NCBI GenBank assembly: GCA_016235455.1
Contig: JACRKZ010000103.1
Span: 1-32,478, forward strand
Reading direction: 5' to 3'
DNA: 32,478 nucleotides
Origin: Armatimonadota bacterium
Lineage (GTDB): Bacteria > Armatimonadota > UBA10988
Part shown: piece by piece, positions 1-16,466 of the stretch
Layout: each line of letters starts with the position of its first letter
How positions within the stretch are numbered: the first letter of the stretch is position 1
Program-made: the position numbers and the translations under genes
Notes under the pieces: model-generated
The model's input: only the letters and a program-made list of their open reading frames with translations
Database searches by the model: none
What the model was told of the DNA's origin: nothing

Positions 1-2462
1 TCGCGCAAGGTCGTGGCCGTGGCGGTGTCGCCATCGAAGGCGCGCCGTTGGTCGAGCACCGTGGCCGCCGCGGTCAGGTCGTCGTCGTCGCGCACCTGGG
101 TATCGGAGGTCTGGCTCTGCGTGCCAGCGTTGTTGTGCGAGCGGTGGATGTCGTACCAGTAGATCAGGCTGGCGTCCGGGTTGTTGGTCGCCGAGAGGGC
201 GCTGAAGTTGTAGCCCAGATAGTCGTCGGGCGTGCCCTTGCGGACATCGCGCGGCCCTTCCATCAGCCGGTCGGCCGCGGTCCACACCTGGTTGCCGCCG
301 CCCGCGCCGCCGTCGAGCATGGTCTGCACGTAGAAGCGCAGCATGGGTGACTTGGCGCCGGGGCTAACCGGCAGGAAGTAGTCCTCCACCGGGTTCAGCA
401 CGCCGCCATCGGGCAGGTAGCCGAGCAGGAAGTTCGGCCGCTCGTGGTCGCCGCTGACATCACGCGGGGTGCCGACGGTGCTCATCACCGGCAGCAGCGT
501 CTTGAGCTGGGGGTACAGGCCGCCATTGGCGGGGTCATACTGCGCCAGCTTGCTCAGCGTGGCGCTGGCGGACGACGCCGTGTCGGCATCTTGGGGCAGC
601 ACCTGCACCGAGGAGACCATGTAGCGGCAGACCAGTGGGCCGCCTTGGTACGAGCCGGTGGTGCCGAGCAGGTTCCCGTTGTAGGGCCACGAACAGAACC
701 GGCGCACCTTCCAGACGTTGGTGTCCGCCGCGGCCTCCCAGTTGTTGCCGTTACGGCGAACGTTCAGCGGGTCTCGTGCGTATGTTGCGCCGACGGTCTG
801 TCCGCTGACCACGTGCATCTTGGTGGGTGCATGGGCCGCCAGGTCGGAGGCCAAGATGACCTGGTCGTCCGCGCTGCCCTTGTTACCATCCGGGCCGGGC
901 AGATTCCAGGAAGCGACGGCCAGGGCGTCGTCGTTGCCGCCGAGCCGGTCGTCCCAGCCGAACGGCCAGGGGCCGCCATTGTTGGCGACAATCGGCGCGT
1001 CCGTGACGGTGCCCGACCACTGCGTGTGGGCCAGGTCATTGATGCTTTCCACGGGCACGCCGGTCTCATACTCGAACTGCAGTTCGACCATGCCCACGCC
1101 GGCATAGGCCGGCCGGCGTACGGCCGTGCCCAGCCAAGCGGCGGTACCGCTCAGGCGGTACAGCCCGTTGAGCAGGTTGACCTCGATCACCGGCGCGTTG
1201 ACCGGCGCGGGATAGTAGGAAAAGCCGTTGGTGGTGCTGAGGGTGCCGGCGGTGGGCAGTACCATCGTGGCGTCCACCGAGGCCTGGGTCGCTTCGGCCG
1301 TGCTGTGGATGCCGCGCAGGTACCAGTTCGCCGCGCCCGGATCCGCCGCGGCGGCGAACCTGAACAGCACTTCGATGGGTCGGGCGGCCGGGGCATCGAC
1401 CTCGGGCAGTTCCGTCGGCCGGCGCTTGATCCAATCGACCGCGTTGGTCAGATCGGCGGCGGGGTCGACGATGGTGCCGTCGGCGTCCAGTCGCCGGTTC
1501 TCCCACATGGCATTGGGGTCGAAGAACATGGTGCCCAGGCAGATGTCGCGGTCGCCGGTGCCCGTGGTCAGCAGCCGGTTGACGCCGCCGTTGTTCTCCG
1601 CGATGCGCGCGAAGTTCGGGTCCTTGACATAGAAGGGCAGCGGAATGACACCGTTGACCACACTCGCGGCGACGTGGCAGGCCTGGTTGCCGTTGACCCA
1701 GGCGTTGCGCACCCAGTCGCTCCAGCCGGTGTAGCGGAATTCCAGGCTGTTACTGGGGCTGGCGCCAGCCGCGCGGCGCCCCCAAAACTCGCGGATGGCA
1801 TTGACATGAGGCGCGGTGGTAAAGGCCGCGTCGGCCTGCGCCTTGGTCATGCTGGGCGTCACCGCGCCGATGGCCTCGGGGTAGTAGACGCCGGGCGCCG
1901 GCGGCGCGCCCTTGCCCGCCGGCGGGTGGACCAGGATACGCCAGTTGCCGGTGGCCGCCGCGTCGAAGCTCATGGGCTTGGCGCCATCGAGCTTGGAGGC
2001 CAGACCGAGGTTGCGCAGGTTCTCCACGACCTTGTCGCAGGTAGCCTGGAGCGGCAGCTTGCGCAACTCGACGTACAAAATCAGCTCGTCGTCGTTGGTG
2101 CCATAGATCCCGTCGGGCCCAGCCCGGCGCACGAGCGGCATGGCCGGCATGCGCTCGGAGGAGGTCAGCTGCGGCGCGGTGACCGGATAGGGCTGCGTGG
2201 CGCTGTTGAGGCCGAAGGTGCCGGTGGCGTCGGGCACGCCCTGCATGGTGCCGGCAATATAGCAGCGGTAGGTCAGCTCGCGCACCTGGTCGGCGCTCAG
2301 GCTGAACGTCGCCGCGCCGTGGGTGCGCGAGATGCCCGCCGCCTCCAGCGGATTGGCACGGTAGGTGTTGATGATGGCCGGCACTTCGGTCTGCGCCCAC
2401 AGCGGCCCGCAGGTCGCGGCGGCGGCGAAGATCAGTGCGGCTCGGTAGGTCCAGCGTGTCAT
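1..2462 (-). CDS. Large secreted protein of unknown function (partial, >820 aa, continues beyond the left edge)
   Basis: Translated by hand; absent from the ORF track because no stop lies in the window. ATG at 2462 follows a strong SD (GGAGGTG, about 2478-2472). An in-frame ATG at 2492 overlaps the upstream stop. N-terminus MTRWTYRAALIFAAAATCGPLWA|QTEVP is a Sec signal peptide. The frame is open to base 1 with strong GC3 bias. It contains two GPDGxxG[TS]xDD motifs. Confidence 0.88.
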   Translation of the reverse strand, partial: MTRWTYRAALIFAAAATCGPLWAQTEVPAIINTYRANPLEAAGISRTHGAATFSLSADQVRELTYRCYIAGTMQGVPDATGTFGLNSATQPYPVTAPQLTSSERMPAMPLVRRAGPDGIYGTNDDELILYVELRKLPLQATCDKVVENLRNLGLASKLDGAKPMSFDAAATGNWRILVHPPAGKGAPPAPGVYYPEAIGAVTPSMTKAQADAAFTTAPHVNAIREFWGRRAAGASPSNSLEFRYTGWSDWVRNAWVNGNQACHVAASVVNGVIPLPFYVKDPNFARIAENNGGVNRLLTTGTGDRDICLGTMFFDPNAMWENRRLDADGTIVDPAADLTNAVDWIKRRPTELPEVDAPAARPIEVLFRFAAAADPGAANWYLRGIHSTAEATQASVDATMVLPTAGTLSTTNGFSYYPAPVNAPVIEVNLLNGLYRLSGTAAWLGTAVRRPAYAGVGMVELQFEYETGVPVESINDLAHTQWSGTVTDAPIVANNGGPWPFGWDDRLGGNDDALAVASWNLPGPDGNKGSADDQVILASDLAAHAPTKMHVVSGQTVGATYARDPLNVRRNGNNWEAAADTNVWKVRRFCSWPYNGNLLGTTGSYQGGPLVCRYMVSSVQVLPQDADTASSASATLSKLAQYDPANGGLYPQLKTLLPVMSTVGTPRDVSGDHERPNFLLGYLPDGGVLNPVEDYFLPVSPGAKSPMLRFYVQTMLDGGAGGGNQVWTAADRLMEGPRDVRKGTPDDYLGYNFSALSATNNPDASLIYWYDIHRSHNNAGTQSQTSDTQVRDDDDLTAAATVLDQRRAFDGDTATATTLR

Positions 2463-2488
2463 GGTGCCGTTCACCTCCATGCGCCGTG

Positions 2489-5400
2489 TCATTGCGCTGC
2501 GTAGACCGGCGAGCTGACAGGGTAGCTTCCGGTGCTCGGCCGGCGCTGGGTAGCGCCCGCGCTGGCCGGATAGGTCCTGGTTGTGCTCAGGTCGGGCAGC
2601 ATGGTCTCAACCCGCTTGTTGGCCAGATTGGCGGGGTCAAAGCGGACCAGCAGCACCTCGGAGTTCGAGGCTGTCTGGTTCACGCTGTTGGCCGCGCCAT
2701 TGACCAGCGCCAGCAAGTTGTCCGAGGCCAGGCGGCTGATTGACGTCGGGTTGAAGCCCTTGTCCCCGGAGTTCCACCAGTTGTCGCGCTGGGTCTGGCC
2801 GACGCCGGCGCGCTCGTAGTAGCTGTCGTTGGCGGCATTGTCGTAGACCAGGTCGTGGTAGTCGCTCTTGGTGAACGTCCACGGCCCGGTCAGGCCCGTA
2901 GGCCATTTCAGATAGGTGCCCACCAGACCGTTGGCCGCGCTGGCGATGAGCGTGGTGCTCAGTTCGTAGACGCAGACCCGCGACCCGCCGGCCGGATCGG
3001 CGCAGACCACCGCCAGGAACATGCGGTTGCCGACCTTGAAGCGGCTGAAGCTGCGCAGCCCGCGGAAGCTCATGTCCTTGGCCCAGCGGTCGGTCATCGA
3101 GGCCAGGCTGAGCTTGACGCCGTCGGCCTGACCGTCGTTGTTGGCGTCGATCTTGCCGTCATGCGCGGCGAACAGGTCGACGTTGAACAGCTGGTCGTAG
3201 CCGTCAACGCGCGCCACCACATAGGAGTCCAGCGCATCGCCCGTGTTGGCCGCTTCGCCGGCGTTGGTCGGCTCGGCCGGCGAGGTACCCGGGTTCCACA
3301 CCTGCACCTCGGCGAACGGCAACTCGACCCACTGCTTGGTGACCGGGTTGTAGACCTGCGGCGCGGTGAGCGGGATGCCATGGCCGCCCGCGCTGTCCAC
3401 CGTCTGTCCGGCCAGCGCATCGTAGTAGGTCTGCGTGCCACTGCCCTGGGCCCGGTCGTGGCTGCTGACCAGCAGCAGTCGGCGGTTGCCGCGGTCGGCC
3501 ACCACGGTCAAGTCCCGCGTCGCCGCGGGATCCGGCGTAGCCGCCGGCCAGGGCAGGACCGCCTGGAAGCGACCGGCGTCCGAGGGCCGGTTGAGCCCGA
3601 AGTCGCGCAAGCCCCAGTAGACCAGTTGGGCGCCATTGAGCCGTGTGTCGAAGGGCCAGACAGCCGCCCCGGTGCTCGTCGCCTGGACCACGCGGTCGTT
3701 GCCGGTGTCCACCACCAGCACCTGGTCGCCGGTCAGGTTGTAGGCACGGCTGGGCCGGTTGAGCGCCGAGGTCAGCAGTTCGCTCGGCGGAGGATTGTAG
3801 ACCACTGCCTGCGACGGCCGCGCGGCACCGTTCTGCACCCTCACGCCGGTCAACTGCCAGCGCACGCCGCCCGAGAAGTCGAGCCGCGACAGCCGCATGC
3901 TCTCGGTCACCAGCAACTGCGAGCCGCCGATGCCGTACAGCGCGTTGAGCACGTTGGCGCCCTGCACCATGTTGAAACTGACGTAGACACCGTCATCGGT
4001 GGGCAACGGCGTGCCGCGCACGTAGCTGGCATCGACCGTGCTCTGCGCCACGTTCGACCAGCCGGTCACCGAGTCCGGGCGCAGACTAGTCATCTCCACC
4101 ACGCGGTCTTCCTGACCGAAGCGGAAGGACAGCAGGCCACCCGTGCCCACGCCGTTGACGGCCAGTGCCGTCGCGGCGCCGGTGCCAGCGACGGTGCCGG
4201 AGACGTACAGGCGGTCGCCGGCCACCACCGGCGAGAACGACAGCGCCGGCAAGCGGCCGCCGATGGTGTACTTGTGGGTGTATGTGCTGCCATTGCAGGT
4301 GAACCGCACCCAGGCCGTCTTGCCCCAGTCGCCCGCGGCGAAGGTCATCACCTGCGGCTGGCTGGCATTGATCGTCGGGGTCAGCGGGCCGCCGCCGTTG
4401 GCGTCGGTCACCGTGATCGCGCTGGGCACGCCAGGGCTGTCGATGACCACCTCACCGGGCAGGTATGTCCAGCGCACGGGCACGGGGATGTAGACCCCGT
4501 AGACGAAGCCGGCCGGCTCGTTGAACAGACCGTCGCCGTTGTCCTCGACCAGCCACAGCGGTCGGCCGTAGAGCGGACGGCGCGAGGTCGGCATATCGGC
4601 CTGCGCCGGCTGCGCGAAGCGCGTGAGATGCGCCAGATCGGGCCGCAGCGACAGCGTCGCGCTGGCGAAGTCGAGCGTGTACTGGCTGGGGTCGATGACA
4701 TGGGCGCGCAGGTTCGTGGCCGACGGCCCGCTGGCCGGATAGGCGGCCAGGTTGTTCGAGCCCGCGGCGAAGGTGGTCGGATCGGCGTCCACCAGGTAGT
4801 GCCGACGATCGCGGTTCGGCGCGGTCCCGCGCAGCGCCATGCTGAAGCCCGGGTTGGCGTCCAGGGCGATGATGCCGCCGCTCTGCGGCGCGAAGCTGCC
4901 GTTCACCACACGGCCGGCGACCACGATGCTGTTGCCGTACTTGACCGGCGAGCCGTAAGCGCCAAAGTGGCCGCCGCCGAGCACGCTGTCGGCATCGAAC
5001 TGCCAGCGCACGGTCTCGTAGTTGTTGGGGTTCGGGTCGCCCAACTGCAGGCTGTCGCCACCCGCCTGATAGAAGACCACCGGGCCCGAGCTCAGCGCGT
5101 TGCCGACAGGAGTACCGGACAGCGTGTTGGCGCTCCACAGCGCCGAACTCACGCCGACCAGGGTCTCGTTGTCCAGCAGCATGGGCGCCGCGTTGCCGTT
5201 GGCCAGCAACTCCATCGACCCGTTGACCGCGGGCTCGTAACCGCTGTCGCGGTTGGCGCGCAGCAGCCGCTGACGCGGGAACACCTTGCGCCGGTCGGTG
5301 ATGGCCTGGCCGGCCACCGTGTAGCTCAGCACGGCGTCGGCGTAGACCTGCGCGTCGCGGTAGAAGCCGACGGCCGTGCCGCGCATCAGCACGTCGACGG

Positions 5401-7873
5401 CCACCACATTGCCGGAGATGTCCTTGACCTGTCGCCATTCACAGCCGTCGGTGGGATTGGCCGTGGTGATGCGGTTCAGCACGTTCCCGCCGATCGTCAC
5501 CGTGGGCGTCGCCGCCGGGGCCAGATCGACATCGGCGTTGATCCGCCAGCCCATGGACTGTGCGTCGGCGGTCACGGCCCAGCAGTCGCCGTTGGCGCGA
5601 CCGATGAACACGGTGGGCGCGGTCAGCCCGGTGCGCTGGTCGGTGACCAGGCCGACCACCGAGGTCAGCCGCGTGGTGTCACCCAGCGCCAGTTGCATGC
5701 CGGGGCCGCCATGCGTGGCCAGCGTATCCGCCGGCCCACCAAAGCTCGGGTGCAATTGCAGTTCGACCTGCTTGAGCGCCTCGGCCATCAGGTAGGCGCG
5801 TTTGGAGGGCGTGCTGGTCCACAGACCGTAGGCGGTGTCCACGTTCTCGCCGCCGTAGGTGAAGTCGGGGAACGACCACTTCAGCGCGCCCGCGATGGCC
5901 GATGTGGCCGGATCAGGCACCGCGCGGACCGCGTAGACGCGGGTCCAGCCGCCCGTCTCACTGGCGCTCGGCGGGCAGTAGGAGGTGGTCACATAGACCG
6001 TGTCGCCGTAGACCACCGGCGCGCCGACCAGCGCCGGGTCGAGCCCGACGGCCGGCAGGTTGACGAAGCCACCACCACCGAACGCGGTGGCCGTGGCCGT
6101 GGCGCGGGTGCGGTCGGCACCGGCGGCGAAGGCCGTCAGGCGGACCGCGCCGCCGATCACCTGGGTGGCCAGCAGCAGGTCGACCGCCGACTTGTCGGGG
6201 TCGCGTGCCACGCTGGCCACGGTGGCACCACAGATGGGCGCGCTGAGCGGCTGCACCCAGATGGTGTCGAACGGCGCGCCGGTGGCATAGTCCGGAATAC
6301 CGTCGTCGGCCGCGCCGTCACCGTCGCGGTCCGCGCTCGGGGCGCTGTCGATGGCCACCAGGAAGTAGTTGCCGCCGCTCTGGCACTGCAGGTAGACCAG
6401 GCCGTTGGCGGCGCACAGCGGCTCCTTGAGCCCGGCGTTCATGTCGGTGTCCAGCGCGCCGTAGCCGCTGGTCTGGATGGACCCGTCGCCCAGATTGGTG
6501 CCAGCCGCGGTGAGCCCGGAGGAGGGAGCGTTCCACACGAACTTGGGGGTCAGGTTGCTGACCGTGGTGCTGGACAGAATGCCCTTGTTGGTCGGGCCGC
6601 CGCGGCGGTTGCCGCCAAAGCTGCTGTGCCAGCCGAGCACGTTGAGCATGAATTTGACGTCCGGCAGGTAGGCGCCCGTGTTGGAGCCGGTGTAGCCAAC
6701 CTTGTGCACGTCCTCCATGATGTCGATGCCGGACAGGATGAGCTTGCCCGAGCCCATGCGCACCACGGCCACGGCCGCGTCCTTCTGGCCGCTGAAGTCG
6801 GTCCAGTTCTCGGCGTAGTTGACGCGCAGGACCTGCTCGGCCAGGTAGGCGCCCGAGCCGCGATTGAGGATCAACTGCTCCGCCGACAACACGTCGCCCA
6901 GACTGCCCACTTCGCTGGCGCCGATCGTCTGCACGGCCGTCAGCAACGGATGGTTGAGGTTGGGCGCCGTCCAGGCCGGCGGCGTCACAGGCGCCACGCC
7001 GTTCGGCGGTGCGTTGTTCAGGGGATAGCCGTCCGGACGGGTGTTGTTGGTGGCGTTCGAGTAGGGAAAGCCATCGCAGAACTGCACCGGCAGCAGGAAC
7101 TCCTGGTCGGTGGGCAGCGTGGTCTTGTCAGCCGCGCCGACCTCGATGCGCAGGCCGTGCGAGTTCTCCATGTACAGCGTGCCGCCAAGGTCCAGGAACT
7201 GGCGCAGCAGGTCGAGCTCCTGGCTGGTGAAGGTCAGGTTGCGCTGCGTATTGAGCAGCACCACGTCGAAGTTGGCCAACTGCGTGACCGTACGCGGCGT
7301 GAGCGGCACCTCCCAGTAGGCGGGATGCGTGCGCGGCAACGGCTGGCCCACCGGAGGCAGCGCCTGTTTGGTGCCGCCAGGACCATACTCACCGAGAATC
7401 TGCGGGTCTGCGTGCGCCTTGTAGTAGTTCGGGCCGCCGCTGTTCGGTGGCCAGCCCTTGTAGTACTCGGAATTCGTGAAGCCGCTCCAGCCATAGGCGG
7501 TGATGCCGTCGTTGGTCACCTGCGCGGTCAAGCCATCGAAGCTGACCGCGCCGTTGTACGCCGGGTCCCACAGGTTGGCCAGATCCTGGGTGACATACGG
7601 CATGGCCAAGGGGTTGCTGAGCTGCCAGTTGCTGGGACGCAGGCCGTCGACCGCGGAAATGCCCGACAGCCCCGAGAGCGCGGGCAGCACGAAGGGCTCG
7701 GAGTTCTCCCACTGGTTGGCTTTGAGCATCAGCACGCAGACCTTGATCTCGCGTGTTGAGCCGCCGCCGTCGTTGGTGAACGCCGGATCCAGGGCCTGTG
7801 CGCGCCCGACCAGCAGGCCCAGGAGCAGCCCCGCCCGCAGGAACGTCTTGTGCCACAGCCTCAGCTTGCCCAT
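2489..7873 (-). CDS. Giant secreted protein (1794 aa) with a DUF4159-like N-terminal domain and PQQ/NHL-like beta-propeller repeats; candidate PilY1-like tip adhesin
   Basis: ATG 7873 follows SD GAGGTG. Signal peptide MGKLRLWHKTFLRAGLLLGLLVGRAQA|L. DUF4159-like segment FDVVLLNTQRNLTFTSQELDLLRQFLDLGGTLYME. Propeller-blade motifs GAPVVYGDTVYV, GSPVKYGNSIVV and FSPVVAGDRLYV. NHL-like LNRPSRA...VLVVDTGNDRVV. Ca-loop motifs DRDGDGAAD and DANNDGQAD. Lies directly after the PilX-like gene. Confidence 0.85.
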   Translation of the reverse strand: MGKLRLWHKTFLRAGLLLGLLVGRAQALDPAFTNDGGGSTREIKVCVLMLKANQWENSEPFVLPALSGLSGISAVDGLRPSNWQLSNPLAMPYVTQDLANLWDPAYNGAVSFDGLTAQVTNDGITAYGWSGFTNSEYYKGWPPNSGGPNYYKAHADPQILGEYGPGGTKQALPPVGQPLPRTHPAYWEVPLTPRTVTQLANFDVVLLNTQRNLTFTSQELDLLRQFLDLGGTLYMENSHGLRIEVGAADKTTLPTDQEFLLPVQFCDGFPYSNATNNTRPDGYPLNNAPPNGVAPVTPPAWTAPNLNHPLLTAVQTIGASEVGSLGDVLSAEQLILNRGSGAYLAEQVLRVNYAENWTDFSGQKDAAVAVVRMGSGKLILSGIDIMEDVHKVGYTGSNTGAYLPDVKFMLNVLGWHSSFGGNRRGGPTNKGILSSTTVSNLTPKFVWNAPSSGLTAAGTNLGDGSIQTSGYGALDTDMNAGLKEPLCAANGLVYLQCQSGGNYFLVAIDSAPSADRDGDGAADDGIPDYATGAPFDTIWVQPLSAPICGATVASVARDPDKSAVDLLLATQVIGGAVRLTAFAAGADRTRATATATAFGGGGFVNLPAVGLDPALVGAPVVYGDTVYVTTSYCPPSASETGGWTRVYAVRAVPDPATSAIAGALKWSFPDFTYGGENVDTAYGLWTSTPSKRAYLMAEALKQVELQLHPSFGGPADTLATHGGPGMQLALGDTTRLTSVVGLVTDQRTGLTAPTVFIGRANGDCWAVTADAQSMGWRINADVDLAPAATPTVTIGGNVLNRITTANPTDGCEWRQVKDISGNVVAVDVLMRGTAVGFYRDAQVYADAVLSYTVAGQAITDRRKVFPRQRLLRANRDSGYEPAVNGSMELLANGNAAPMLLDNETLVGVSSALWSANTLSGTPVGNALSSGPVVFYQAGGDSLQLGDPNPNNYETVRWQFDADSVLGGGHFGAYGSPVKYGNSIVVAGRVVNGSFAPQSGGIIALDANPGFSMALRGTAPNRDRRHYLVDADPTTFAAGSNNLAAYPASGPSATNLRAHVIDPSQYTLDFASATLSLRPDLAHLTRFAQPAQADMPTSRRPLYGRPLWLVEDNGDGLFNEPAGFVYGVYIPVPVRWTYLPGEVVIDSPGVPSAITVTDANGGGPLTPTINASQPQVMTFAAGDWGKTAWVRFTCNGSTYTHKYTIGGRLPALSFSPVVAGDRLYVSGTVAGTGAATALAVNGVGTGGLLSFRFGQEDRVVEMTSLRPDSVTGWSNVAQSTVDASYVRGTPLPTDDGVYVSFNMVQGANVLNALYGIGGSQLLVTESMRLSRLDFSGGVRWQLTGVRVQNGAARPSQAVVYNPPPSELLTSALNRPSRAYNLTGDQVLVVDTGNDRVVQATSTGAAVWPFDTRLNGAQLVYWGLRDFGLNRPSDAGRFQAVLPWPAATPDPAATRDLTVVADRGNRRLLLVSSHDRAQGSGTQTYYDALAGQTVDSAGGHGIPLTAPQVYNPVTKQWVELPFAEVQVWNPGTSPAEPTNAGEAANTGDALDSYVVARVDGYDQLFNVDLFAAHDGKIDANNDGQADGVKLSLASMTDRWAKDMSFRGLRSFSRFKVGNRMFLAVVCADPAGGSRVCVYELSTTLIASAANGLVGTYLKWPTGLTGPWTFTKSDYHDLVYDNAANDSYYERAGVGQTQRDNWWNSGDKGFNPTSISRLASDNLLALVNGAANSVNQTASNSEVLLVRFDPANLANKRVETMLPDLSTTRTYPASAGATQRRPSTGSYPVSSPVYAAQ

Positions 7874-7889
7874 CACCGTCACCTCAGCG

Positions 7890-10646
7890 CTATTTCTCTT
7901 CGCCCACGTACGCCAGGCCCGTGCTCAGCGGCAACGCCGGCAGCAGGGGCAGGTTGGCCCGCGGCGTACCGGTCGGCCAGACACCGCGCAGACCCCAGTC
8001 GTAGGAGTAGCGCAGCGTGTTGTAATCGTTGTACAGCGTGGCGCCCGCGCCATTGACCGGATAGGCCCACTTGTCGGACCACTGGGCCACATCGGACAGC
8101 TCGGCCAGGTTGTTGACGGCCACCGCGCCGTTGACCTGCACCTGGTAGTTGTAGCGCTTGAGCCGCGCCAGCCGGTCGGCCGCGTTGGTCGTCGAGGCGT
8201 TGCCCGCGGTGCCGTCCTTGACGTCGGTCAGCAACTGCGCGCGCGCGTCGAACCAGTCGCCGGGAATGACGAAGAAGCTGCCGCGCTCGGCATACATCAG
8301 CGCGCTGACCGTCATCGTCACACCGGGGTTGAGCGTGCCGCCGTTGTTGCGCTCGACCTTCAGGTTCTTGAGCAGCACATCGCTCTGGCTGCCGCCCTGA
8401 CCGTTGGCCTGCAGGCCGGCCTGCACGGTCAGCCAGTTGGGTCGGCCGTTAGCGGCCCAAGCCACGGCGCCCATGGCCCAGGTGTCGGGCATGTACTCCT
8501 GCGTGCCCTGGCCGCCGGCGTTGGGCAGGTACAGCGCCCGCGCCAAGTTGGCCAGGTCAGCGAAGAAGGTCGGCGTCTGGCATGCCTGCTGGCCGGGCAC
8601 TTGCGGGCTGCCCGTGCCGTCGGGGCTCAACAGCCACGGCCCCGCCGCAGCGTAGGGCTGGCCCAGCTGGGCTCGGTTGTTGTGGAACAGCACCGAGGCG
8701 CGCGCCGCCAGGCCGTCGTTCTGGTCACCGTCCACCGCCTCGGCCAGCACCTGCAGGTTGGCGGTGTTGGCGTCGGTGGGCAGTTCGATACCGACCGTCT
8801 GGGTGCCGGCGGCGTCGAGCCGATAGTGCGCGTCCATGGGGCTGTTGCGCGGCGAGTCGAAGGACCCGGGCGTCAGGCCCGACAGGGGGCCCGGCGCGTA
8901 GACGGTCGGGTTGAGCACCACATGGTCACGCGCCAGCAGGGCGATGCGCGTGTTGTCCGGCCCGTTGGGGTTGGCCACCGCACCGTAGTCGCTGGGCCGC
9001 AGCAGCGAGCCCTCGATGTAGATGCTGCCGCGGCTGACCACGGTCAGATGGTAGTCGAGCGCGGCGGAGCTGACCGGCAGCCGGCCACGGATGCGCACGT
9101 TGCCATCGGCCATGACCAGGCCGTTGTCAGCCAGCGGGCTGGTGGTCGGCACATCGCTCGTGCCGGTCCAGGCCGGTCGCGTGTAGGTACCGGTCTTGGC
9201 CGGCCAACGGAAGGCCAGCGTGGTCGAACCGCTGAGCTGACCGGTGGTCAGGTTGGTCCAGGTGCTGCCGTCGGTGCGCGTGATGACGATGGCCGGCCCG
9301 GCTGGTCCGCTGGGGAAGGTGTAGCTGTCGTACAGGTCGATGATCGCGCCGTTGGGCACATAGCGTCGGCCGCCCCAGTTCTCAGGCGCCAGCCAGGCCT
9401 GCCGCGCGCCGTCGAGGTTGTCGCGCTGGGCCGTGTTGTCGAGATAGATGCCGCGGCCATAGCCGAGCTCGCCGGAATTGACCGTGGTGCTCACGCCGCC
9501 GGGCGTCACCGTCACGTTGTCACCCGAGTAGCGGGTCAGCCGTTCAAAGCGCGAAACGCCCGTGGCCGGCTCGGCGGCATCCAGATCCGGCGCCTCCAGG
9601 CGCGGCGCGCCCAGCGCCACGCGCAGGCCGGTGCCGGTGGCATTGGTGGTGGGGTCCCAGGCGGTGGGCAGGCCGGCGGTGTTGCTGACCAGCAGCTCGG
9701 TGTTGCCCGCGGTCTGGGCGGCGGTGAGCTGGCGGCGCACGGCGCCCGACACCTCGAGGCTGTCGTTCCAGGCGTTGCCCGTCGTCACGATGCGCACCGG
9801 CGGATGGACATCCAGGTCCAGGTTCGAGCGCACCGGCCCGTCAAGATAGAGCGGCAGGAAGTCGTTGGCGCCGGTCGCGGTCCAAACGCCGCCGGCGGCC
9901 GCGGAGCGGTTGCTGGCCGAGACGGTGCCGTCGCCGTTGATGTCCACTCCGGGCACGCCCAGCGGCGCGGCCGCGGCGCGGCGGGTGCGGTCGTGGACGA
10001 ACAGCAGATAGTTCTGGATGCCGATGGGCTTGTAAGCCACGAGCTGGTCAAACACGTTGGTGTTGGCGCCCGGCCGGCCGATGGCGGTGATCTTGATGGC
10101 CTTGGACTCGGGGTTGGCCGGGTTGGGCGCGTACTCGATGCGCAGCAGGAAGTGATCGTGCGGCGCGGTGATTTCGCTGTTCTCCACCGGCATGTTCTTG
10201 TCGGGGTCGGTGAAGTCCTGGCTCGGATCGACGGTCGGGTTCTGGCTCGGCGCGTCGGGGTCCATGGCGAAGCGGAACTTGACGTAGTACGGCGCGCCCG
10301 ACGCCACGGGATCCCAGCCGCGCAGCTTCTCGAACGAGTCGTAGGTGTTGTCGTAGGCCTGCTGCGTGAAGGCGGGATTGGCCGGCGTGAGGTAGTCCGC
10401 CAGCGCCGGGCGCCAGTCGGCGCCTTCGGTGGCCGAGGTCAGCATCTCGTCGGCATACCGGATGCCCGCCAAGGCCAACGAGTGGGCGTGCGCGGACGCT
10501 TCGTCGCGCTCGGTGTCACGCGCGCTGCCAGCCACCACGGCGACCACGGAGGCCGCAAGCATGGCCAGCATCAGCAGCACGATCACCGCCAGCAGCAGCG
10601 CCTGACCGGCGCTGCGCCGTCGCCGACCCATCGTCATTTGCCTCAT
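7890..10646 (-). CDS. PilX/GspK-like minor pilin, unusually large (918 aa)
   Basis: Basic leader RRRRSAG|QALLLAVIVLLMLAMLA lacks Glu5, as is typical of the PilX/GspK class. It is followed by the A..LALAGI.YA helix. Ca-loop DINGDGTV. The start could be ATG 10646, 10637 or 10631. Confidence 0.85.
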   Translation of the reverse strand: MRQMTMGRRRRSAGQALLLAVIVLLMLAMLAASVVAVVAGSARDTERDEASAHAHSLALAGIRYADEMLTSATEGADWRPALADYLTPANPAFTQQAYDNTYDSFEKLRGWDPVASGAPYYVKFRFAMDPDAPSQNPTVDPSQDFTDPDKNMPVENSEITAPHDHFLLRIEYAPNPANPESKAIKITAIGRPGANTNVFDQLVAYKPIGIQNYLLFVHDRTRRAAAAPLGVPGVDINGDGTVSASNRSAAAGGVWTATGANDFLPLYLDGPVRSNLDLDVHPPVRIVTTGNAWNDSLEVSGAVRRQLTAAQTAGNTELLVSNTAGLPTAWDPTTNATGTGLRVALGAPRLEAPDLDAAEPATGVSRFERLTRYSGDNVTVTPGGVSTTVNSGELGYGRGIYLDNTAQRDNLDGARQAWLAPENWGGRRYVPNGAIIDLYDSYTFPSGPAGPAIVITRTDGSTWTNLTTGQLSGSTTLAFRWPAKTGTYTRPAWTGTSDVPTTSPLADNGLVMADGNVRIRGRLPVSSAALDYHLTVVSRGSIYIEGSLLRPSDYGAVANPNGPDNTRIALLARDHVVLNPTVYAPGPLSGLTPGSFDSPRNSPMDAHYRLDAAGTQTVGIELPTDANTANLQVLAEAVDGDQNDGLAARASVLFHNNRAQLGQPYAAAGPWLLSPDGTGSPQVPGQQACQTPTFFADLANLARALYLPNAGGQGTQEYMPDTWAMGAVAWAANGRPNWLTVQAGLQANGQGGSQSDVLLKNLKVERNNGGTLNPGVTMTVSALMYAERGSFFVIPGDWFDARAQLLTDVKDGTAGNASTTNAADRLARLKRYNYQVQVNGAVAVNNLAELSDVAQWSDKWAYPVNGAGATLYNDYNTLRYSYDWGLRGVWPTGTPRANLPLLPALPLSTGLAYVGEEK

Positions 10647-10773: not shown

Positions 10774-12930
10774 CTATTTCGCTCCGACGGTCAGCCGCTG
10801 CTGCACCGTCACCCGGCGCCGAGCACCGGTGGGCCGCTCGCTGGTCGGCACCGAGGCGTCCGCCGGATCGCCCACGGCCTCGGTCAGGCCGTGCGTCGAG
10901 TCCGCCGGTACGTCCAGGGTCAGGTTGAGCACGAGCGACTCCTGCGAGCGGTAGGTCATTTCGACCACATCGCGGTTGGAGTCGTTGCCGGCCAGCATCT
11001 GCAGCACGGTGGGCAGATTGTTGCGATACTCATAGGTCACATGGATGACGGTCCGCACGGGCACGCCGCCGATGGTCTCGTTGTCCGTGTCTTGGGGCGG
11101 GTTGTAACCGTCGCGCGCGGCGACCGCGTCGCCCGAGAGCTGCGGATCATAGAAGACCAGCTTGCCCGACCCGGGATCGCAGTAGCACTGGAAGGGACGC
11201 AGCGCCGGCGGCGCGCCCGGCGCCACCGATTCCACCACCTGGTAGCTGCGGCTGGCCAACGGCTGCCCCGTCAGGTTGGCGGCCGGCCGCTTCTCCACGA
11301 CCACATGCAGGCTGCCGAGCACCAGCGACATGTTGATCTGCGCCAGCGACAGGTTGGGCAGGCCCAGCGCGCCGGTCTGCAGCCGCTCGGGTCGGAAGGC
11401 CGAGAGCGTGTAGCCGGTCCACACGCTGCGGTTGGTACCGTTGTCGTTGACCACGTAATGGTCGTCGATGACGAACCCGTTGCTGCCGGCGTTGCCGCCC
11501 TGGCACAGCGGCAGCGACTGCCAGACCGCGGCCGGCGCGGGGCTGCCGGCGGCAAACAGCGGCGGGGCCGGCACCGTGCCCTGGTGGTCGTGATTGTTCA
11601 GCGCGACGACCGCGGCGTTGCTGCCATCACCCGAGGGGCAGATGAAGTCCTCCTGCGGGAAGGTGGTCAACACCTCGCCGGTCGACCAGTCGATGCCACA
11701 GGCCATCTCGCCGCTACCCACCGCGGGCGAGCCGGCCGGCGCCGTGCCGGGCGCCGTGCCGAAGACGCGCTTGGGGTAGTCGGTCACGTCGTAGACGGGG
11801 ATGGCCACGCCGCCGACGGCGGTCGGCATGCGGTAGAGGATGACGTGCCCGACGGTCAGCGAGGCCGGATCCTGGTCCAGCGACAGGAAGTAGTTGAGTT
11901 CCAGCGGGCCGGCGCCATCGCGCACGTCCTGCACCCGGAACATGCCGATCAGCGGCTTGGCCCCCGTGGAGGTGGCCACCACGCCGGTGGCCGGCGCGGT
12001 CCACAGCGCGTCGCTGGTGCGCTGATAGGGCTCCTGCCAGCGGCGCAGCGTACCGTGGTAGGCGCCGAACGAGCGGTTCGGCGTCAGCTGCTCCTGGTCC
12101 AGGCGATAGGGCAGGAACTGCGCCTCGCGCACATCGGTGCCAGCCTCCGTGATGGGACTGATGCCCAGCATTGCCGAGGCGTGGGTGTAGGTGTCCGGCG
12201 TGCCGGTCGGCTGCGCCTCGGGCGAGCGCATGATGCGCTCTGCGGCCGTGGCCGGCGCGGCGGCGTAGCTGCGGTCGGTGTTGGCCACCAGCCAGTCGAA
12301 GGCGCGGCCTTGGTCGAACAGCAGCGGCCACACGGTGGGCCCGAAGCTCTGCAGCGAGCCGCCGCCGGTCAGGCGCAGGCGCCGCACGGCATAGCCGTAG
12401 AGGTCGTCGGGCGAGGTGACCGACAGCGTCTGACCGCCCTGGTTCTCGCTGAACGGCTGGTAGTAGGAGACCGCGCGAAACACCCGGCGCGGGTTCTTCA
12501 TGGGGTCATAGGGCTGCGTGACGTCGCCGCGCATGACCCAGTAGGTGACCACCATGGGCCGACCGGTGCTGTCGGTGGCCGGCTGCACCGGCGACAGCAC
12601 CTTGCCGCGGTTGTCCACCGCCGCCGGCACGAAGCTGACGCGCTCGGGCTGCGCGGTGTGCCACTTGGAGTTGTTGCCCGCCGTGGCGCCCGTGGGCAGG
12701 TCGAAGGTGCCGAGGTTGGAGTAGACCTTGACCGCGGTGCGCAGCTCGCCGGCCATGCGGTCGACGACCTGCTGCGCGGTGGCCTGGGCCTCACGCTCCG
12801 CGCGGCCGATACTGAGCACTTCGATGCCCATGAGCAACGGCTTGAAGATCATGCCCAGCAGGATCGCCAGGATGGCCACGGCGACCAGAATCTCGACCAG
12901 GGTGAAGGCTCTCGCGCGCTGTCTCGGCAT
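10774..12930 (-). CDS. Prepilin-type N-terminal cleavage/methylation protein, PilW/GspJ-like (718 aa)
   Basis: MPRQRARA|FTLVEILVAVAILAILLGMIF class III signal. Helix AQATAQQVVDRMAGELRTA is typical of PilW/GspJ. SD GAGGGAG precedes ATG 12930; an alternative ATG at 12945 overlaps the upstream stop. Confidence 0.88.
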   Translation of the reverse strand: MPRQRARAFTLVEILVAVAILAILLGMIFKPLLMGIEVLSIGRAEREAQATAQQVVDRMAGELRTAVKVYSNLGTFDLPTGATAGNNSKWHTAQPERVSFVPAAVDNRGKVLSPVQPATDSTGRPMVVTYWVMRGDVTQPYDPMKNPRRVFRAVSYYQPFSENQGGQTLSVTSPDDLYGYAVRRLRLTGGGSLQSFGPTVWPLLFDQGRAFDWLVANTDRSYAAAPATAAERIMRSPEAQPTGTPDTYTHASAMLGISPITEAGTDVREAQFLPYRLDQEQLTPNRSFGAYHGTLRRWQEPYQRTSDALWTAPATGVVATSTGAKPLIGMFRVQDVRDGAGPLELNYFLSLDQDPASLTVGHVILYRMPTAVGGVAIPVYDVTDYPKRVFGTAPGTAPAGSPAVGSGEMACGIDWSTGEVLTTFPQEDFICPSGDGSNAAVVALNNHDHQGTVPAPPLFAAGSPAPAAVWQSLPLCQGGNAGSNGFVIDDHYVVNDNGTNRSVWTGYTLSAFRPERLQTGALGLPNLSLAQINMSLVLGSLHVVVEKRPAANLTGQPLASRSYQVVESVAPGAPPALRPFQCYCDPGSGKLVFYDPQLSGDAVAARDGYNPPQDTDNETIGGVPVRTVIHVTYEYRNNLPTVLQMLAGNDSNRDVVEMTYRSQESLVLNLTLDVPADSTHGLTEAVGDPADASVPTSERPTGARRRVTVQQRLTVGAK

Positions 12931-12941
12931 GGTCGTCTCCC

Positions 12942-13853
12942 TCATCCCCGCGGGGCGCGCAGCTCGGCGCGCGGCGGCGCCCAGCCGCTGTTGTCCGGCG
13001 CCGGCACGACGGCCGCATGGCCGTCGGCGAACAGGACGATGTCGACGCCCCAGGCAGCCTTGTTGTACTGCGGCGCGGGCACCGTCTGCTTGGTGCGGAA
13101 CGCCGTGGACCAGGTGACCACGGTGTCACTGGCCGGCAGGTAGCGGCTCGACGGATCGTCGGTGCCCACGCGCGACAGCTGGCGGCGGTAGTAGGTGCCG
13201 TTGCCAGGGTTGTCCACGGGCCAGGCGGAACTCGTCTTGCGCACCGGCTGGTAGCGCCACTCCCGAGTGAACGGATCCTGCATCATCCAGGAGCACCAGT
13301 TCTCGTTCAGGTCGTCCTGATAGTCGGCGAAGGCGGTAGTCACGGCGGTCGTGCTGTGCGCCGCCGGGTCGGCCAGGGCGGCGAACGCGCGGTACTTCTG
13401 GGCCGGCGTCAGCGGCGCGGTCTGCGAGCCGCCGGTGGCGTTGTTGTAGACCTCCAGCAGGCCGGCCTCGCTGTCCACGTCCATGCCCGGCACCCGGCCG
13501 CCGCCAGCGATAATCCAGGGCGCCTCGGGGTCGGGATAGCCGGCATCATGCAGGTAGCGGCTGCTCTGCAGGTAGTCGAGCATGACCAGCGTCCACAGGC
13601 CCGCGCCGTCGGGCACACCCACCTCGCCGGTCGGGTTGTACGGCGGCACATCGCCCCAGTCGGCGCGATAGACGCTCAGCGCGCGGGCCACGGCGTGCAG
13701 CCGGCCCATGGTCTCGCCGCGGTGCTGCGACACTTCCAGGCGTCGCACCGCGCCGACCACGATGCCCAGCAGCATGACCATGATGATGATGACTACCAGC
13801 AACTCGATCAGAGAGAAGCCCGACCGAGCGCCACAACGTCGTGTTGGTTTCAT
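12942..13853 (-). CDS. Prepilin-type protein (303 aa) with a degenerate H-X9-DG-like C-terminal motif
   Basis: MKPTRRCGARSG|FSLIELLVVIIIMVMLLGIVV. C-terminal VLFADGHA. ATGA overlap with the upstream stop at 13850-13853. Confidence 0.88.
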   Translation of the reverse strand: MKPTRRCGARSGFSLIELLVVIIIMVMLLGIVVGAVRRLEVSQHRGETMGRLHAVARALSVYRADWGDVPPYNPTGEVGVPDGAGLWTLVMLDYLQSSRYLHDAGYPDPEAPWIIAGGGRVPGMDVDSEAGLLEVYNNATGGSQTAPLTPAQKYRAFAALADPAAHSTTAVTTAFADYQDDLNENWCSWMMQDPFTREWRYQPVRKTSSAWPVDNPGNGTYYRRQLSRVGTDDPSSRYLPASDTVVTWSTAFRTKQTVPAPQYNKAAWGVDIVLFADGHAAVVPAPDNSGWAPPRAELRAPRG

Positions 13854-15619
13854 CGGTGTCGCCTCACCAGCCAATTGAGCTCGTAGAGCCGCTGCCGGGT
13901 ATCGCCAGCGGGCTGTCCGGTCACCACCGGCACCGACGGCCGCACCAGGTTCTGGTCGTTGTAGACCACCCGCACGGCCATCGACACGCCCTCGACCGTA
14001 TGCAGATAGGGTCGCACGTCGGCGCCCACGCCCAGCGTGCCGCCGGGTTCCAGCGGGCGTTGCAGCCGGATGGCATGACGCAGGGCGCCGGCCACGCCGG
14101 CATTGGCCTGCGGCGGCACCACGTGCGGTTCACCACTGACTGTCTTGTGCCCGGTGGGCGTGTTGTACTCGTAGCTCACCAGCACCGTGCGGCCGGCCTC
14201 GCTGGGCCGGAAGCGCAGTTCGCAGTAGCTGTCGACGGCGTTGACCACGACCGGCTCGACGACCATCGACTGCACGGGATAGTTGGCCAGCGAACCGCCG
14301 GCCAGGCTCTGCGCATCGGCGGCCAGGATGTAACTGGCCGGCGCGATGCTCGGCGCCACGGCCCAGTTGCCCTGCCGACGGAACCAGACCACGACCTCGT
14401 AGGTGCCGTCGGCCAGGCCGGTCAGGCCGGTGGCCAACTGCAGTGGCACGCGGCCGGACTTGGCCACATCGGGGGCCCACAGCGCCGTGTTGAGTGGGAT
14501 TTGCTGACCCGTCTGCCGGATGACCAGCAGCGGCTGGAAGGTGTCGTCCAGGTCGGTGGTGCGCAACTGCAGCATGCCGCCGGTGACCACGCCGCCCGCG
14601 GGCTGCAGCACGTTGCCGCCGGCGTCCATGGCCAGGGTGACCGTCTCGTGCAGCAGGCGCCAGTCGCGGGCCACGTACTCGAGCGAGATGTCCTCGCCGG
14701 CCAGGCTGGTGCTCATGCGCACATAGCCCAGATTGGCGCCGGAGTCGTCGAACGAGAAGCGGCCGCCGCCACCATGCGTCAGCGCCTGTCGCACGCTGAC
14801 CGAGCCGGGGATGACGTTGGCGTTGGTCAGCACCACCTCCTGGTACAGACTGGCCGGGGTGCCGGCGGTGGCGGCCAGCGCCGTGGTGCCGGCCGGCGCC
14901 TGGACCCAGGCGGCGCGGCCCTGGTTGTTGTAGGCGTAGCGCACGATGAGCTGGCGAGCGCGCGCGTCGAGTTCGAACAGCAGGCGGTCATTGGCCGGCT
15001 GCCGGGTGAACGAGTCGATGCCGCCATCAAGGAAGGCGAACACCGGGCGGTCCTGGTAGCCGCCCGCGGCCTGGGTGACGCGCAGGTCGGCCGGGTCCAC
15101 CTGGGTGAACTCGCGGAACGCCTCCACCACCGCGCCGGCCGTGGTGTCGATCGGTCCGAACAGCGTGTAGGTCGGCTCGGCGCCACTGCTCGTGCCACGC
15201 GGCACCAGGGCGCGCTCGCCGACCACCAGGCGGTTGGCGGCCAGGAAGCGGTAGAGCGCTTGCGGGTCGTTGACGTCCGTCCAGCCGTTGGGGCCAGCGA
15301 AGGCGGTGAAGTCATAGGGCCGATTGGCGTCGATCCCGGCGCCCAGGCGCAGGAACCCGAAATCGGGCTGCGCCGGGTCGGTCTGCGTGGGCAGGCCGGC
15401 GGGCAGGATGGCGTCGGGCAACCGGCTCTCGTCGGCGCGCAGTTCCTCCAGGCGAGCCTGGGCCATACGCACCGCGTCCGCTCGATCGCGGTTGGTGGTG
15501 ATGATGCCCAGGCTCTTGGGGAAGATGCGTAGCACCGCCAAGATGCCAATCACGAAGATCGCCATCGCGATCAGGACTTCGATCAGCGATAGACCGCTGT
15601 TCCGCCGCTTGTTCGCCAT
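13850..15619 (-). CDS. Prepilin-type protein, PilV/GspI-like (589 aa)
   Basis: MANKRRNSG|LSLIEVLIAMAIFVIGILAVL, followed by the AVRMAQARLEELRA helix typical of PilV/GspI-class pilins. ATG 15619 follows GGGAAG. Confidence 0.87.
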   Translation of the reverse strand: MANKRRNSGLSLIEVLIAMAIFVIGILAVLRIFPKSLGIITTNRDRADAVRMAQARLEELRADESRLPDAILPAGLPTQTDPAQPDFGFLRLGAGIDANRPYDFTAFAGPNGWTDVNDPQALYRFLAANRLVVGERALVPRGTSSGAEPTYTLFGPIDTTAGAVVEAFREFTQVDPADLRVTQAAGGYQDRPVFAFLDGGIDSFTRQPANDRLLFELDARARQLIVRYAYNNQGRAAWVQAPAGTTALAATAGTPASLYQEVVLTNANVIPGSVSVRQALTHGGGGRFSFDDSGANLGYVRMSTSLAGEDISLEYVARDWRLLHETVTLAMDAGGNVLQPAGGVVTGGMLQLRTTDLDDTFQPLLVIRQTGQQIPLNTALWAPDVAKSGRVPLQLATGLTGLADGTYEVVVWFRRQGNWAVAPSIAPASYILAADAQSLAGGSLANYPVQSMVVEPVVVNAVDSYCELRFRPSEAGRTVLVSYEYNTPTGHKTVSGEPHVVPPQANAGVAGALRHAIRLQRPLEPGGTLGVGADVRPYLHTVEGVSMAVRVVYNDQNLVRPSVPVVTGQPAGDTRQRLYELNWLVRRHR

Positions 15620-15681
15620 CGTCGTCTTCCCAACGACCCGCCCAGGCCAGCCGCGAGGCTGACGCGGTCGATGCCGCACTG

Positions 15682-15701: not shown

Positions 15702-15707
15702 GCCGGT

Positions 15708-16466
15708 CTACTGGTTGGCCAACTCGGGTTGGGTGGCCCACTTGTAGCTCTTGGTCGGGGTGATGTTCCCCGAGCCGCCCAGGCGCAAGATCAGGCACAG
15801 TTCCTTGCCGGGCTCTTCGTGGTCGCGGCAGACTGTCACGACCGTGCTGTCGGGCGCGTAGAGATTGGCCAGCATCTTGTCGTTGCGGGTTCGCGCGGCG
15901 GGCGGTGCGGTCAACAACGTCGGTTCCCCGTTGTTCACGCCATAGCCGTAGTAGTTGTAGTAATCGTCGTAAGTGCTGGAGGTGAAATTGGCGTCGCCGG
16001 TCACGGTCAGCGCTTCCTCATCCACCGTGCCGTTGTACTGCACCGGCGTCTCGGCACTGGCCCGCGGCGCGAGATATCGGCTGGCCCCGTCCTCCTCGGG
16101 GCAGATGAAGGTCACCTGCTCCTGGACGTAGTTGGGGTACAGCGCGCCCAGACGGCTCTTGCGGCCCGAGAGAGTGTCGAATGTCTTGTAGGCGACCGTG
16201 CCGGGCGACAGGCCGGCGATGTCCTTCAGACCGTTCTGAACAGCTGCCGAGCAGCCCAGCGGATAGGCCTTGAAGTCCTGCTTGTACTGCTTGAGCCCCA
16301 GGCCCAGCTGGTGCATGTTGGCCTTGCAGGCCGCCAGTCGCGCCTTGCGCTGCGCCGTGTGGATGACCGGCAGCAGGATCGCCGCCAGCACCGCGATGAT
16401 GGCAATGACGACCAGCATCTCCACGAGGGTGAAGCCGCGCCGTCCGCCGAACCGGATTTTCATCAT
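15708..16466 (-). CDS. Prepilin-type protein, DUF1559-like (252 aa); first gene of the operon
   Basis: MMKIRFGGRRG|FTLVEMLVVIAIIAVLAAILLPV...ARLAACKANMHQLGLGLKQYKQD matches the DUF1559-type N-terminus. FICPE motif. SD GGGAGG lies 6 nt before ATG 16466. Confidence 0.92.
   Translation of the reverse strand: MMKIRFGGRRGFTLVEMLVVIAIIAVLAAILLPVIHTAQRKARLAACKANMHQLGLGLKQYKQDFKAYPLGCSAAVQNGLKDIAGLSPGTVAYKTFDTLSGRKSRLGALYPNYVQEQVTFICPEEDGASRYLAPRASAETPVQYNGTVDEEALTVTGDANFTSSTYDDYYNYYGYGVNNGEPTLLTAPPAARTRNDKMLANLYAPDSTVVTVCRDHEEPGKELCLILRLGGSGNITPTKSYKWATQPELANQ

Follow-up and report, generated by a model that had tools for sequence, protein, structure and literature searches.

An operon of oversized pilin-like proteins and giant secreted proteins in Armatimonadota: a candidate type IV filament tip complex

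What kind of structure is built by an operon that encodes five pilin-like proteins, three of them giant, followed by two giant secreted proteins? Such an operon occupies half of a 32,478-nucleotide (nt) stretch, hereafter the window, from a Fimbriimonadaceae-like Armatimonadota bacterium of the GTDB lineage UBA10988 (assembly GCA_016235455.1, contig JACRKZ010000103.1, positions 1 to 32,478 of the forward strand). A preliminary description of this DNA proposed a type IV filament tip complex of an undescribed kind. Our analysis suggests that the operon encodes the pilins with which a type IVa pilus-like filament of Armatimonadota is primed and capped, a reading to which we assign a probability of roughly 0.65. 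Tip and priming complexes set when a type IV pilus starts and what the pilus binds, and to our knowledge they have been studied almost only in Proteobacteria, Thermus and Firmicutes and, of late, in cyanobacteria. With the operon, a gene set found across the phylum is defined for Armatimonadota, little-studied bacteria of soil and water whose type species was named for its fimbriae.

The seven genes, designated A to G, are co-oriented on the minus strand and span positions 3 to 16541 (Table 1). All are coding: each shows the high-GC signature in which G+C at the third codon position (GC3, 0.85-0.93) exceeds that at the first (GC1), which in turn exceeds that at the second (GC2), and the G+C content of the window is 65-74%. 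The tight spacing noted in the preliminary description was also confirmed. Judging from the coordinates of the open reading frames (ORFs), B/C, C/D and F/G may overlap by 4 nt, and the remaining distances are 7-16 nt (E-F), 22-88 nt (A-B) and 106-127 nt (D-E). Long plus-strand ORFs at 444-2504, 2855-7759, 7500-10928 and 10891-13143 (up to 1634 amino acids, aa) lack the GC3>GC1>GC2 pattern and were rejected as antisense artefacts of high GC content. A consensus scan against shuffled sequences revealed no terminator-like site above chance within the A-G block; promoter and terminator scans of the whole window likewise did not rise above shuffles, and no Rfam family was found in the window, a search that also covered riboswitches ahead of the pilin genes. 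Between A and the upstream gene for a GAF-histidine kinase lies a hairpin that looks like a terminator (centroid stem, -24.3 kcal/mol, z = -2.42; 4 of 200 shuffles fold equally well), which the consensus terminator scan did not pick up. If it acts as one, A would be the first gene of the operon.

The five class III motifs reported earlier are present exactly as quoted (G↓FTLVE, G↓LSLIE, G↓FSLIE, A↓FTLVE and G↓QALLL; arrows mark the processing sites). Four of the seven proteins pass the Pfam N_methyl profile (PF07963; A 33.7, B 29.2, C 22.1 and D 30.4 bits, cut-off 21.2), and the same four exceed the cut-off of NCBIfam TIGR02532 (34.9, 19.2, 21.7 and 21.1 bits, respectively; cut-off 16.3). Each of them has Glu at mature position 5 (Glu5), a residue needed for subunit-subunit contacts in filaments, and this Glu is invariant in all 13 members of the B family and in 21/21 aligned relatives of D. 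The N-terminus of E consists of a basic stretch, Gly, Q-A-L-L-L and a long hydrophobic helix, and matches neither N_methyl nor PilX_N in Pfam. In an alignment of 21 E sequences, two of which are truncated at the N-terminus, the 19 intact N-termini all have G↓Q(A/T)L with Leu or Ile at +5, and Glu5 is absent from every one. This distribution of Glu5 argues for a priming set.

One alternative explanation is that B, C, D and E are large envelope proteins, members of the very large families of PulG-like paralogues in this phylum, that use the class III signal only as an anchor or processing signal, in which case the adjacency to pil genes seen in some genomes (see below) would reflect common processing by PilD. 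We consider this improbable. It could draw on the 79 PulG-like genes reported in one Armatimonadetes genome (PMC4072686) and on the heads of B, D and E, which have no recognisable pilin-family signature beyond the N-terminal helix; the invariance of Glu5 in B and D, however, weighs against it.

Gene order provided further evidence. In a word-indexed protein set, 27 relatives of E were detected at E<=1e-3, and the four with a named organism were all from Armatimonadetes or Armatimonadia. A locus scan using one genome per species yielded 15 loci (L001-L015), which, according to their titles, belong to Armatimonadota/Armatimonadetes/Fimbriimonadaceae (11 loci), 'uncultured bacterium' (2), candidate division WS1 (1) and Omnitrophota (1); the counts of gene order take in only loci with enough flanking sequence. 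The order A-B-(C)-D-E was found in 12 of the 12 loci with upstream sequence, E being the last pilin gene in each, as had been stated for the subunit without Glu5, and an F-like gene directly followed E in all 13 loci with downstream sequence. Thus, gene order is conserved among homologues. Across at least 12 loci, at 19-30% identity, the order stays fixed with a single Glu5-less member at its end; this marks a priming set rather than random paralogues and speaks against the anchoring explanation. L001-L004, the closest four, in which E is 44-67% identical, have the same arrangement as the window, kinase-A-B-C-D-E-F-G. More distant loci (E 24-28% identical) have A-B-D-E-F without C, and in five of these a WbsX-family protein takes the place of G.

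The distant loci also connect the set to a motor. In five of them (L005, L006, L007, L010 and L011) the genes form a string pilB-pilT-pilC-pilD-A-B-D-E-F, and L013 has pilD-A-B-D-E-F, so that a Peptidase_A24 gene lies directly 5' of A in six loci and A is the first gene after pilD. In this string, PilB contains T2SSE and MshEN domains and scores just under the cut-off of the PilB equivalog (616.6 bits, cut-off 675.65), PilC is a T2SSF protein and the prepilin peptidase belongs to Peptidase_A24. The PilT/PilU-family ATPase scores well above its cut-off (514.3 bits, cut-off 319.1), which points to a retractile motor of the type IVa pilus type, and the position of the block directly after pilB-pilT-pilC-pilD ties it to such a motor. 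The window itself contains no ATPase, platform, secretin or prepilin peptidase gene, as noted before, and no relatives of PilB, PilT, PilC or PilD were found within 10 kb in L001-L004 either. This separation of the operon from pil motor genes in the window's clade, where it adjoins a histidine kinase, counts in favor of envelope proteins that do not form a filament.

The motor genes bear on a second alternative, namely that the set forms a secretion-type pseudopilus, either of a type II secretion system (T2SS) or similar to the cyanobacterial Hps system, rather than the tip of a surface pilus. It would then act in the periplasm as a short piston or as a conduit adaptor; F, together with G or the WbsX-family protein, would be Sec-exported cargo or a partner in polysaccharide or enzyme export. 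We regard this as unlikely. In five loci the gene string includes a PilT/PilU-family ATPase, whereas a classical T2SS has no retraction ATPase. On the other hand, in one survey the type IV filament systems of Armatimonadetes that had been classed as generic were moved to T2SS (PMC6668835), and several of the named profile matches, given below, are to secretion pseudopilins.

Among NCBIfam models, A best matched GspG (41.7 bits, cut-off 88.85) and also gave a match to GspJ (20.7, cut-off 64.85). B matched PilV (31.4, cut-off 52.2) and GspI (27.8, cut-off 44.35) over its N-terminal ~60 aa only, and C matched GspG (33.9 bits) and then GspH (23.0, cut-off 80), both below threshold. For D, the sub-threshold names were a mixture, and its homologue in L010 best matched the Hps pseudopilin HpsC (39.2 bits). 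No NCBIfam family was found for E at E<=0.1, although the presence of an HpsA model in the library is unconfirmed. The names assigned to B (PilV/GspI) and to the L010 homologue of D (HpsC) appear in the order expected of a priming set and are consistent with it. The GspG, GspH and HpsC matches would suit a pseudopilus, and so would the report that HpsA, encoded in a polysaccharide-secretion locus, is an enlarged PilX (PMC13759059); all Gsp and Hps scores, however, are far below cut-off and involve the N-terminal helix only.

A, which directly follows pilD in the five strings, may be the major pilin or else the first of the pilin set. The preliminary description listed two DUF1559-like pilins; a short N-terminal match was indeed found in A (PF07596; 31.6 bits, cut-off 23.3, profile positions 4-39 of 268 only), but C gave no match in the Pfam scan. 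Homologues of C are full-length in L001-L004 (covering residues 1-309, 4-293, 7-306 and 1-299 of 310 query residues), and matches in L005-L013 are limited to the N-terminus (for example, residues 18-66 in L005 and 12-78 in L013). Family signals in B, C and D are all N-terminal. D had 159 relatives at E<=1e-3, nine of them at E<=1e-30, among 1.84 billion cluster representatives, and its residues ~10-165 recur in about 150 further prepilin-like proteins, 70 to 827 aa in length. The N-terminus of D may belong to a wider, unnamed PilW-like sequence family, with many other large pilins among its members.

In Pfam and NCBIfam, no family was matched by the heads of B, D and E. Their lengths had been given as 589, 718 and 918 aa; these are the lengths of the precursors, and the mature proteins, with 580, 710 and 904 aa, are still giant. 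Profiles of B and D matched PDB sequences only through their N-terminal ~25-30 residues, leaving the heads unmatched. The AlphaFold model of D (predicted local distance difference test, pLDDT, 78.6; predicted template modelling score, pTM, 0.80) has a helix at residues 11-64, strands at 66-171 and further beta domains, as read from the secondary-structure strings. Foldseek found no significant match to it in the PDB (best E 0.036, probability 0.03), a result that the envelope-protein explanation would accommodate. We also considered that the heads of B, D and E might be paralogous modules and rejected this idea, as alignment of their profiles with hhalign found only the N-terminal helix in common.

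The model of E, unlike that of D, did find significant matches in the PDB. E, which occupies the position of PilX, GspK and ComZ, is the proposed cap subunit. Its AlphaFold model, computed from the 21-row alignment (pLDDT 71.7, pTM 0.73), has a 62-residue helix (residues 10-71) followed by mostly beta structure. In a Foldseek search against the PDB, ranks 2 and 3 were two chains of ComZ from Thermus thermophilus (6qvi). The match to 6qvi_A had an E-value of 2e-4 and a probability of 0.92 over 489 columns, but template modelling (TM) scores of only 0.16 and 0.23; for 6qvi_B the E-value was 7.3e-4 and the probability 0.66 (the two chains together, 489-583 columns, TM-scores 0.14-0.23). Rank 1 was a xylanase bearing CBM15, and this and many later matches were to jelly-roll modules (CBM15, ephrin-receptor ligand-binding domains), with ~190 columns and probabilities of ~0.98. 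A profile of the 21 E relatives searched against PDB sequences found nothing at E<2, ComZ included. Thus, E probably has a ComZ-like fold with a jelly-roll module, and its resemblance to a proven pilin is a further point against anchored envelope proteins. Of the pilin fold looked for in the models, the secondary structure of both D and E shows a long N-terminal helix followed by strands; D found no counterpart in the PDB. Together with the conserved order and the pilB-pilT-pilC-pilD strings, these helices and the ComZ match argue for a filament-capping set.

A separate observation concerns the origin of E. The Omnitrophota locus (L015) has in common with the others only a 142-aa protein (positions 9980-10408) that carries the N-terminal helix of E and the motif AG[IL]RYAD and scores 16.5 bits with PilX_N, below threshold. 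Downstream of it (12567-16656) are genes for a PilM-PilN fusion, PilO, a small protein and a secretin. This small PilX-like protein suggests that the N-terminal ~80 residues of E were derived from an ordinary PilX-type pilin of small size.

The next gene, F, stands where pilY1 would be expected. The N-termini of F and G, read by eye, start with charged residues, followed by a hydrophobic segment and an AxA-like site, in agreement with the Sec signals described for them. Protein searches of the kind used for E found six relatives of F. It aligns with distant homologues from end to end at 20% identity, and all nine sequences aligned keep a C-terminal tail in which one Pro is invariant. The window's F scores 16.8 bits with DUF4159 (cut-off 25.9), and its homologues in L005 and L010 pass (32.3 and 34.5 bits); the L005 homologue also passes PQQ_2 (31.9 bits). 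Of the profiles proposed earlier for a search, N_methyl was recovered in A-D and DUF1559 over a short N-terminal part of A; PilX_N found no match and DUF4159 remained below threshold in the window. A profile of F matched designed propellers (Pizza and Cake) and a PQQ-repeat protein in the PDB, and no PilY1 chain was among these 29 matches; the ESM Atlas gave PQQ/BamB (0.83) and ThuA (0.80), both under 0.9 and regarded as leads only. The propeller repeats and the conserved tail favor a tip protein of the PilY1 kind: PilC/PilY proteins are reported to dock on PilX through a conserved C-terminal tail (PMC13711793), and the PilY1 propeller has been described as a carrier module (PMC8179133). F lacks the PilY1/PilC domain and is therefore an analogue of PilY1 by position and general build, not a member of the family; the PilV-PilW-PilX-PilY1 logic recognised in the preliminary description is largely right with this correction. 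Docking of F on the pilin complex, taken alone, is a tentative proposal. A complex prediction with mature E (residues 15-918) and the last 58 residues of F returned no answer (0.00 in two runs), which counts neither for nor against binding. In L006 the F homologue is split into two overlapping ORFs (12916-13758 and 13535-17515) by a frameshift or an assembly error.

For G the picture is different. It had been suggested as a possible second large tip protein, but the support for this is limited to adjacency, and G is specific to the clade. Only two relatives, including the window's own protein, were found in the search used for F, and homologues are confined to the four closest loci (907 aa in L001) and one further protein. 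G has no match in Pfam, NCBIfam or the Atlas, and a role for it in the complex is very doubtful. In the distant clade the gene after F encodes a secreted protein of ~910-950 aa that carries a Glyco_tran_WbsX (GH99-like) domain and is not homologous to G of the window. This slot is thus exchangeable and may be linked to polysaccharides. The predicted Sec signals of F and G, the secreted WbsX/GH99-like protein in this slot and the presence of a DUF4832+CBM_4_9 protein, a GT2 protein and a PMT_2 glycosyltransferase among the window's neighboring genes could all be accounted for by a pseudopilus that exports polysaccharides or enzymes. G is exchangeable, as cargo might be, but F is retained over its full length alongside the pilins throughout the phylum, for which a structural partner is a better fit than cargo.

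Based on these data, we propose the following model for a primed and capped type IVa pilus-like filament. A-E would insert into the inner membrane via their N-terminal helices and be trimmed by prepilin peptidase. E, which like the top subunits of the GspK/PilX/ComZ type has no Glu5, would nucleate a small complex with D, in the PilW/GspJ position, and B, in the PilV/GspI position; C may be an extra linker pilin of the window's clade. A or another major pilin could then polymerise below this complex, driven by PilB and PilC, which would bring the complex to the tip. Large beta-rich heads, among them a ComZ-like solenoid and a jelly-roll/CBM-like module in E, would offer sites for binding, glycans or other surfaces being the most plausible targets. 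F would be exported by Sec and might dock on the pilin complex as PilY1/PilC does.

Several observations weigh against this model. The PilX_N profile (PF14341, cut-off 25.5 bits) found nothing at E<=1 in the N-terminus of the window's E, and the L010 homologue reached only 13.6 bits; in fact, every named minor-pilin model stayed below its cut-off and matched only the N-terminal ~60 residues. The low TM-scores between E and ComZ leave doubt about that match, although low values are expected of a partial match between multi-domain proteins, and the first-ranked structure for E was the CBM15-bearing xylanase rather than ComZ. With no significant PDB match for D, a PilW/GspJ fold is not shown for this protein, and the heads of the three giant pilins are mutually unrelated. 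No motor, secretin or peptidase gene lies in the window or, for the four closest loci, within 10 kb, so the link to a pilus rests on distant relatives (E 26-28% identical). The PilY1/PilC domain (PF05567, IPR008707) is absent from F and also from its distant homologues in L005, L010 and L014. Expression, incorporation into a filament and passage through a secretin are themselves predictions from sequence.

How new is this system? In the literature searched we found no published description of the operon for Armatimonadota. For Fimbriimonas ginsengisoli, fimbriae and genes for PilB/C/D/Q/M, six PilT and 79 PulG-like proteins have been reported, with only the counts given for pil and PulG-like genes (PMC4072686); this record agrees with a pilus in the phylum. 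Still, the claim of an undescribed kind of complex was overstated, as solenoid-bearing PilX/ComZ caps and the enlarged PilX known as HpsA have been published (PMC6561018, PMC13759059). ComZ is a pilin with a beta-solenoid inside the pilin framework and was argued to fit only at the tip (PMC6561018). E resembles the ComZ-PilA2 system in joining an N-terminal pilin helix to a large beta structure, and ComZ holds ranks 2 and 3 for its model. It differs from ComZ in being ~1.8 times longer (904 aa in the mature form vs 498-518 residues in the ComZ chains), in its extra jelly-roll/CBM-like module, in the absence of a sequence match and of any sign of DNA binding, and in its company, which consists of two more giant pilins and a secreted protein of 190 kDa.

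The cyanobacterial FimT-PilW-PilV-PilX set is another parallel. Its PilX follows the ComZ design and includes an enlarged PilX(EPS)/HpsA subfamily; here too, a priming set probably carries a bulky solenoid in the PilX-position subunit, the proposed filament cap (PMC13759059). Enlarged variants, extended beta insertions in PilW and a link to polysaccharide genes are additional similarities (PMC13759059), as is HpsC, the best sub-threshold match of the D homologue. In cyanobacteria, which generally lack PilY1, the solenoid is proposed to replace it (PMC13759059), whereas in the present operon a giant F is also conserved after E. B and D themselves are 62 and 76 kDa, the HpsB and HpsC models are far below cut-off for A and D, and the phylum is another one.

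With the FimU-PilV-PilW-PilX-PilY1 and GspH-I-J-K sets, the operon has in common several Glu5 pilins followed by one without Glu5 and then by a large non-pilin protein, and F, like PilY1, combines propeller repeats with a conserved C-terminal tail. It departs from the proteobacterial and T2SS sets in that all equivalog scores are sub-threshold and PilX_N is unmatched, and in that F has DUF4159 and PQQ/NHL-like repeats in place of the PilY1/PilC domain. Furthermore, the subunits are three- to fivefold larger than is usual. Modular pilins such as PilB and PilC of Streptococcus sanguinis likewise join a pilin module to a bulky extra module that is likely exposed at the tip (PMC8179133). A survey of such proteins listed more than 1,200 of them in 264 architectures; it counted pilins with domains recognisable by InterPro, and the most extreme of its multi-domain proteins had 860 residues (PMC8179133), compared with 904 in mature E. 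B, D and E, in contrast, carry modules that match no Pfam or NCBIfam family, and there are three such pilins in one operon.

We also compared the operon with the Verru_Chthon cassette (TIGR02596-TIGR02600), in which soil phyla outside the Proteobacteria combine several prepilin-type proteins with one very large protein. Of the cassette models, B, C and D match the N-termini of A-D, but weakly: 26.2 bits vs a cut-off of 70 (model D, protein A), 24.4 vs 256.5 (model C, protein D) and 14.5 vs 51.4 (model B, protein B). The model of cassette protein A matched neither E nor F, and the literature searched contained no paper naming the cassette.

Taken together, the priming-set logic and the solenoid-bearing cap pilin are already known, and the operon is most likely an oversized version of the Thermus/cyanobacterial design. 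What is unusual is that the subunits in the PilV, PilW and PilX positions are all giant (62, 76 and 96 kDa), with heads that match no family, and that a predicted 190-kDa propeller protein with no apparent sequence relationship to PilY1 is conserved in the adhesin position throughout the phylum. A bolder and rather unlikely version of the proposal is a type IVa pilus in which the priming complex is wholly giant, with heads of new and mutually unrelated folds, and a non-PilY1, 190-kDa multi-propeller protein forms the cap, giving a tip of ~450 kDa that is too bulky for the accepted mode of passage through a secretin. If true, such a tip would call for a different outer-membrane route or order of assembly, or it would form a permanently exposed, glycan-binding grappling head. 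If the set is confirmed at the tip, it would widen the size range of the type IV pilus machine and its secretin, indicate that the role of PilY1 can be filled by an unrelated propeller protein and offer three new head folds for ligand tests; if it proves to be a secretion pseudopilus, the Hps-type logic would extend beyond cyanobacteria.

Table 1. Genes and other features of the window and, where a locus is named, of related loci. Spans of the full minus-strand ORFs are listed separately from the likely coding regions.
Feature	Coordinates	Strand	ORF span	Description
A	15708..16469	-	15708-16541	253-aa prepilin; mature 241 aa, 26.2 kDa; Glu5; likely start ATG at 16469, 6 nt after GGGAGG
B	13850..15619	-	13850-15685	589-aa prepilin; mature 580 aa, 62.2 kDa; Glu5; PilV/GspI position
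C	12942..13853	-	12942-13874	303-aa prepilin; mature 291 aa, 31.8 kDa; Glu5; window's clade only
D	10774..12930	-	10774-12945	718-aa prepilin; mature 710 aa, 76.0 kDa; Glu5; PilW/GspJ position
E	7890..10646	-	7890-10667	918-aa pilin-like protein; mature 904 aa, 95.9 kDa; without Glu5; PilX/GspK/ComZ position
F	2489..7882	-	2489-7882	1797 aa, predicted Sec-exported; 189.8 kDa precursor; proposed PilY1-like tip protein by position
G	3..2492	-	3-2492 (past window edge)	Predicted Sec-exported, at least 830 aa, cut by window edge; clade-specific
GAF-histidine kinase	16643..18031	-		HATPase_c 82.5 bits, GAF_2 66.3 bits; upstream of A
Hairpin	16560..16591	-		10-bp GC-rich stem, then UGUUUAGU; between kinase and A
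Secreted protein	18622-20250			No Pfam match
DUF4832+CBM_4_9 protein	20194-22104			Secreted
GT2 protein	23590-24516			With TPR tail
Secreted protein	26141-27520			No Pfam match
PMT_2-type glycosyltransferase	29667-31088			Membrane protein
Secreted protein	31063-32478	+		Gly/Pro-rich N-terminal region; no Pfam match; past window end
WbsX-family gene, L005	17549-20395			After F
WbsX-family gene, L006	18290-21025			After F
WbsX-family gene, L007	17352-20084			After F
WbsX-family gene, L010	17387-20197			After F
WbsX-family gene, L011	17386-20121			After F

The genes around the operon were also examined. The GAF-histidine kinase upstream of A is also present in L001-L004 and may be a regulator of the operon in the window's clade, in which the pil motor genes are located elsewhere. 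On the other side of the kinase gene, the region 18622-31088 is rich in glycan-related genes (Table 1), and it further contains genes for a TPR protein, a citramalate/isopropylmalate synthase-like protein and an ammonium transporter.

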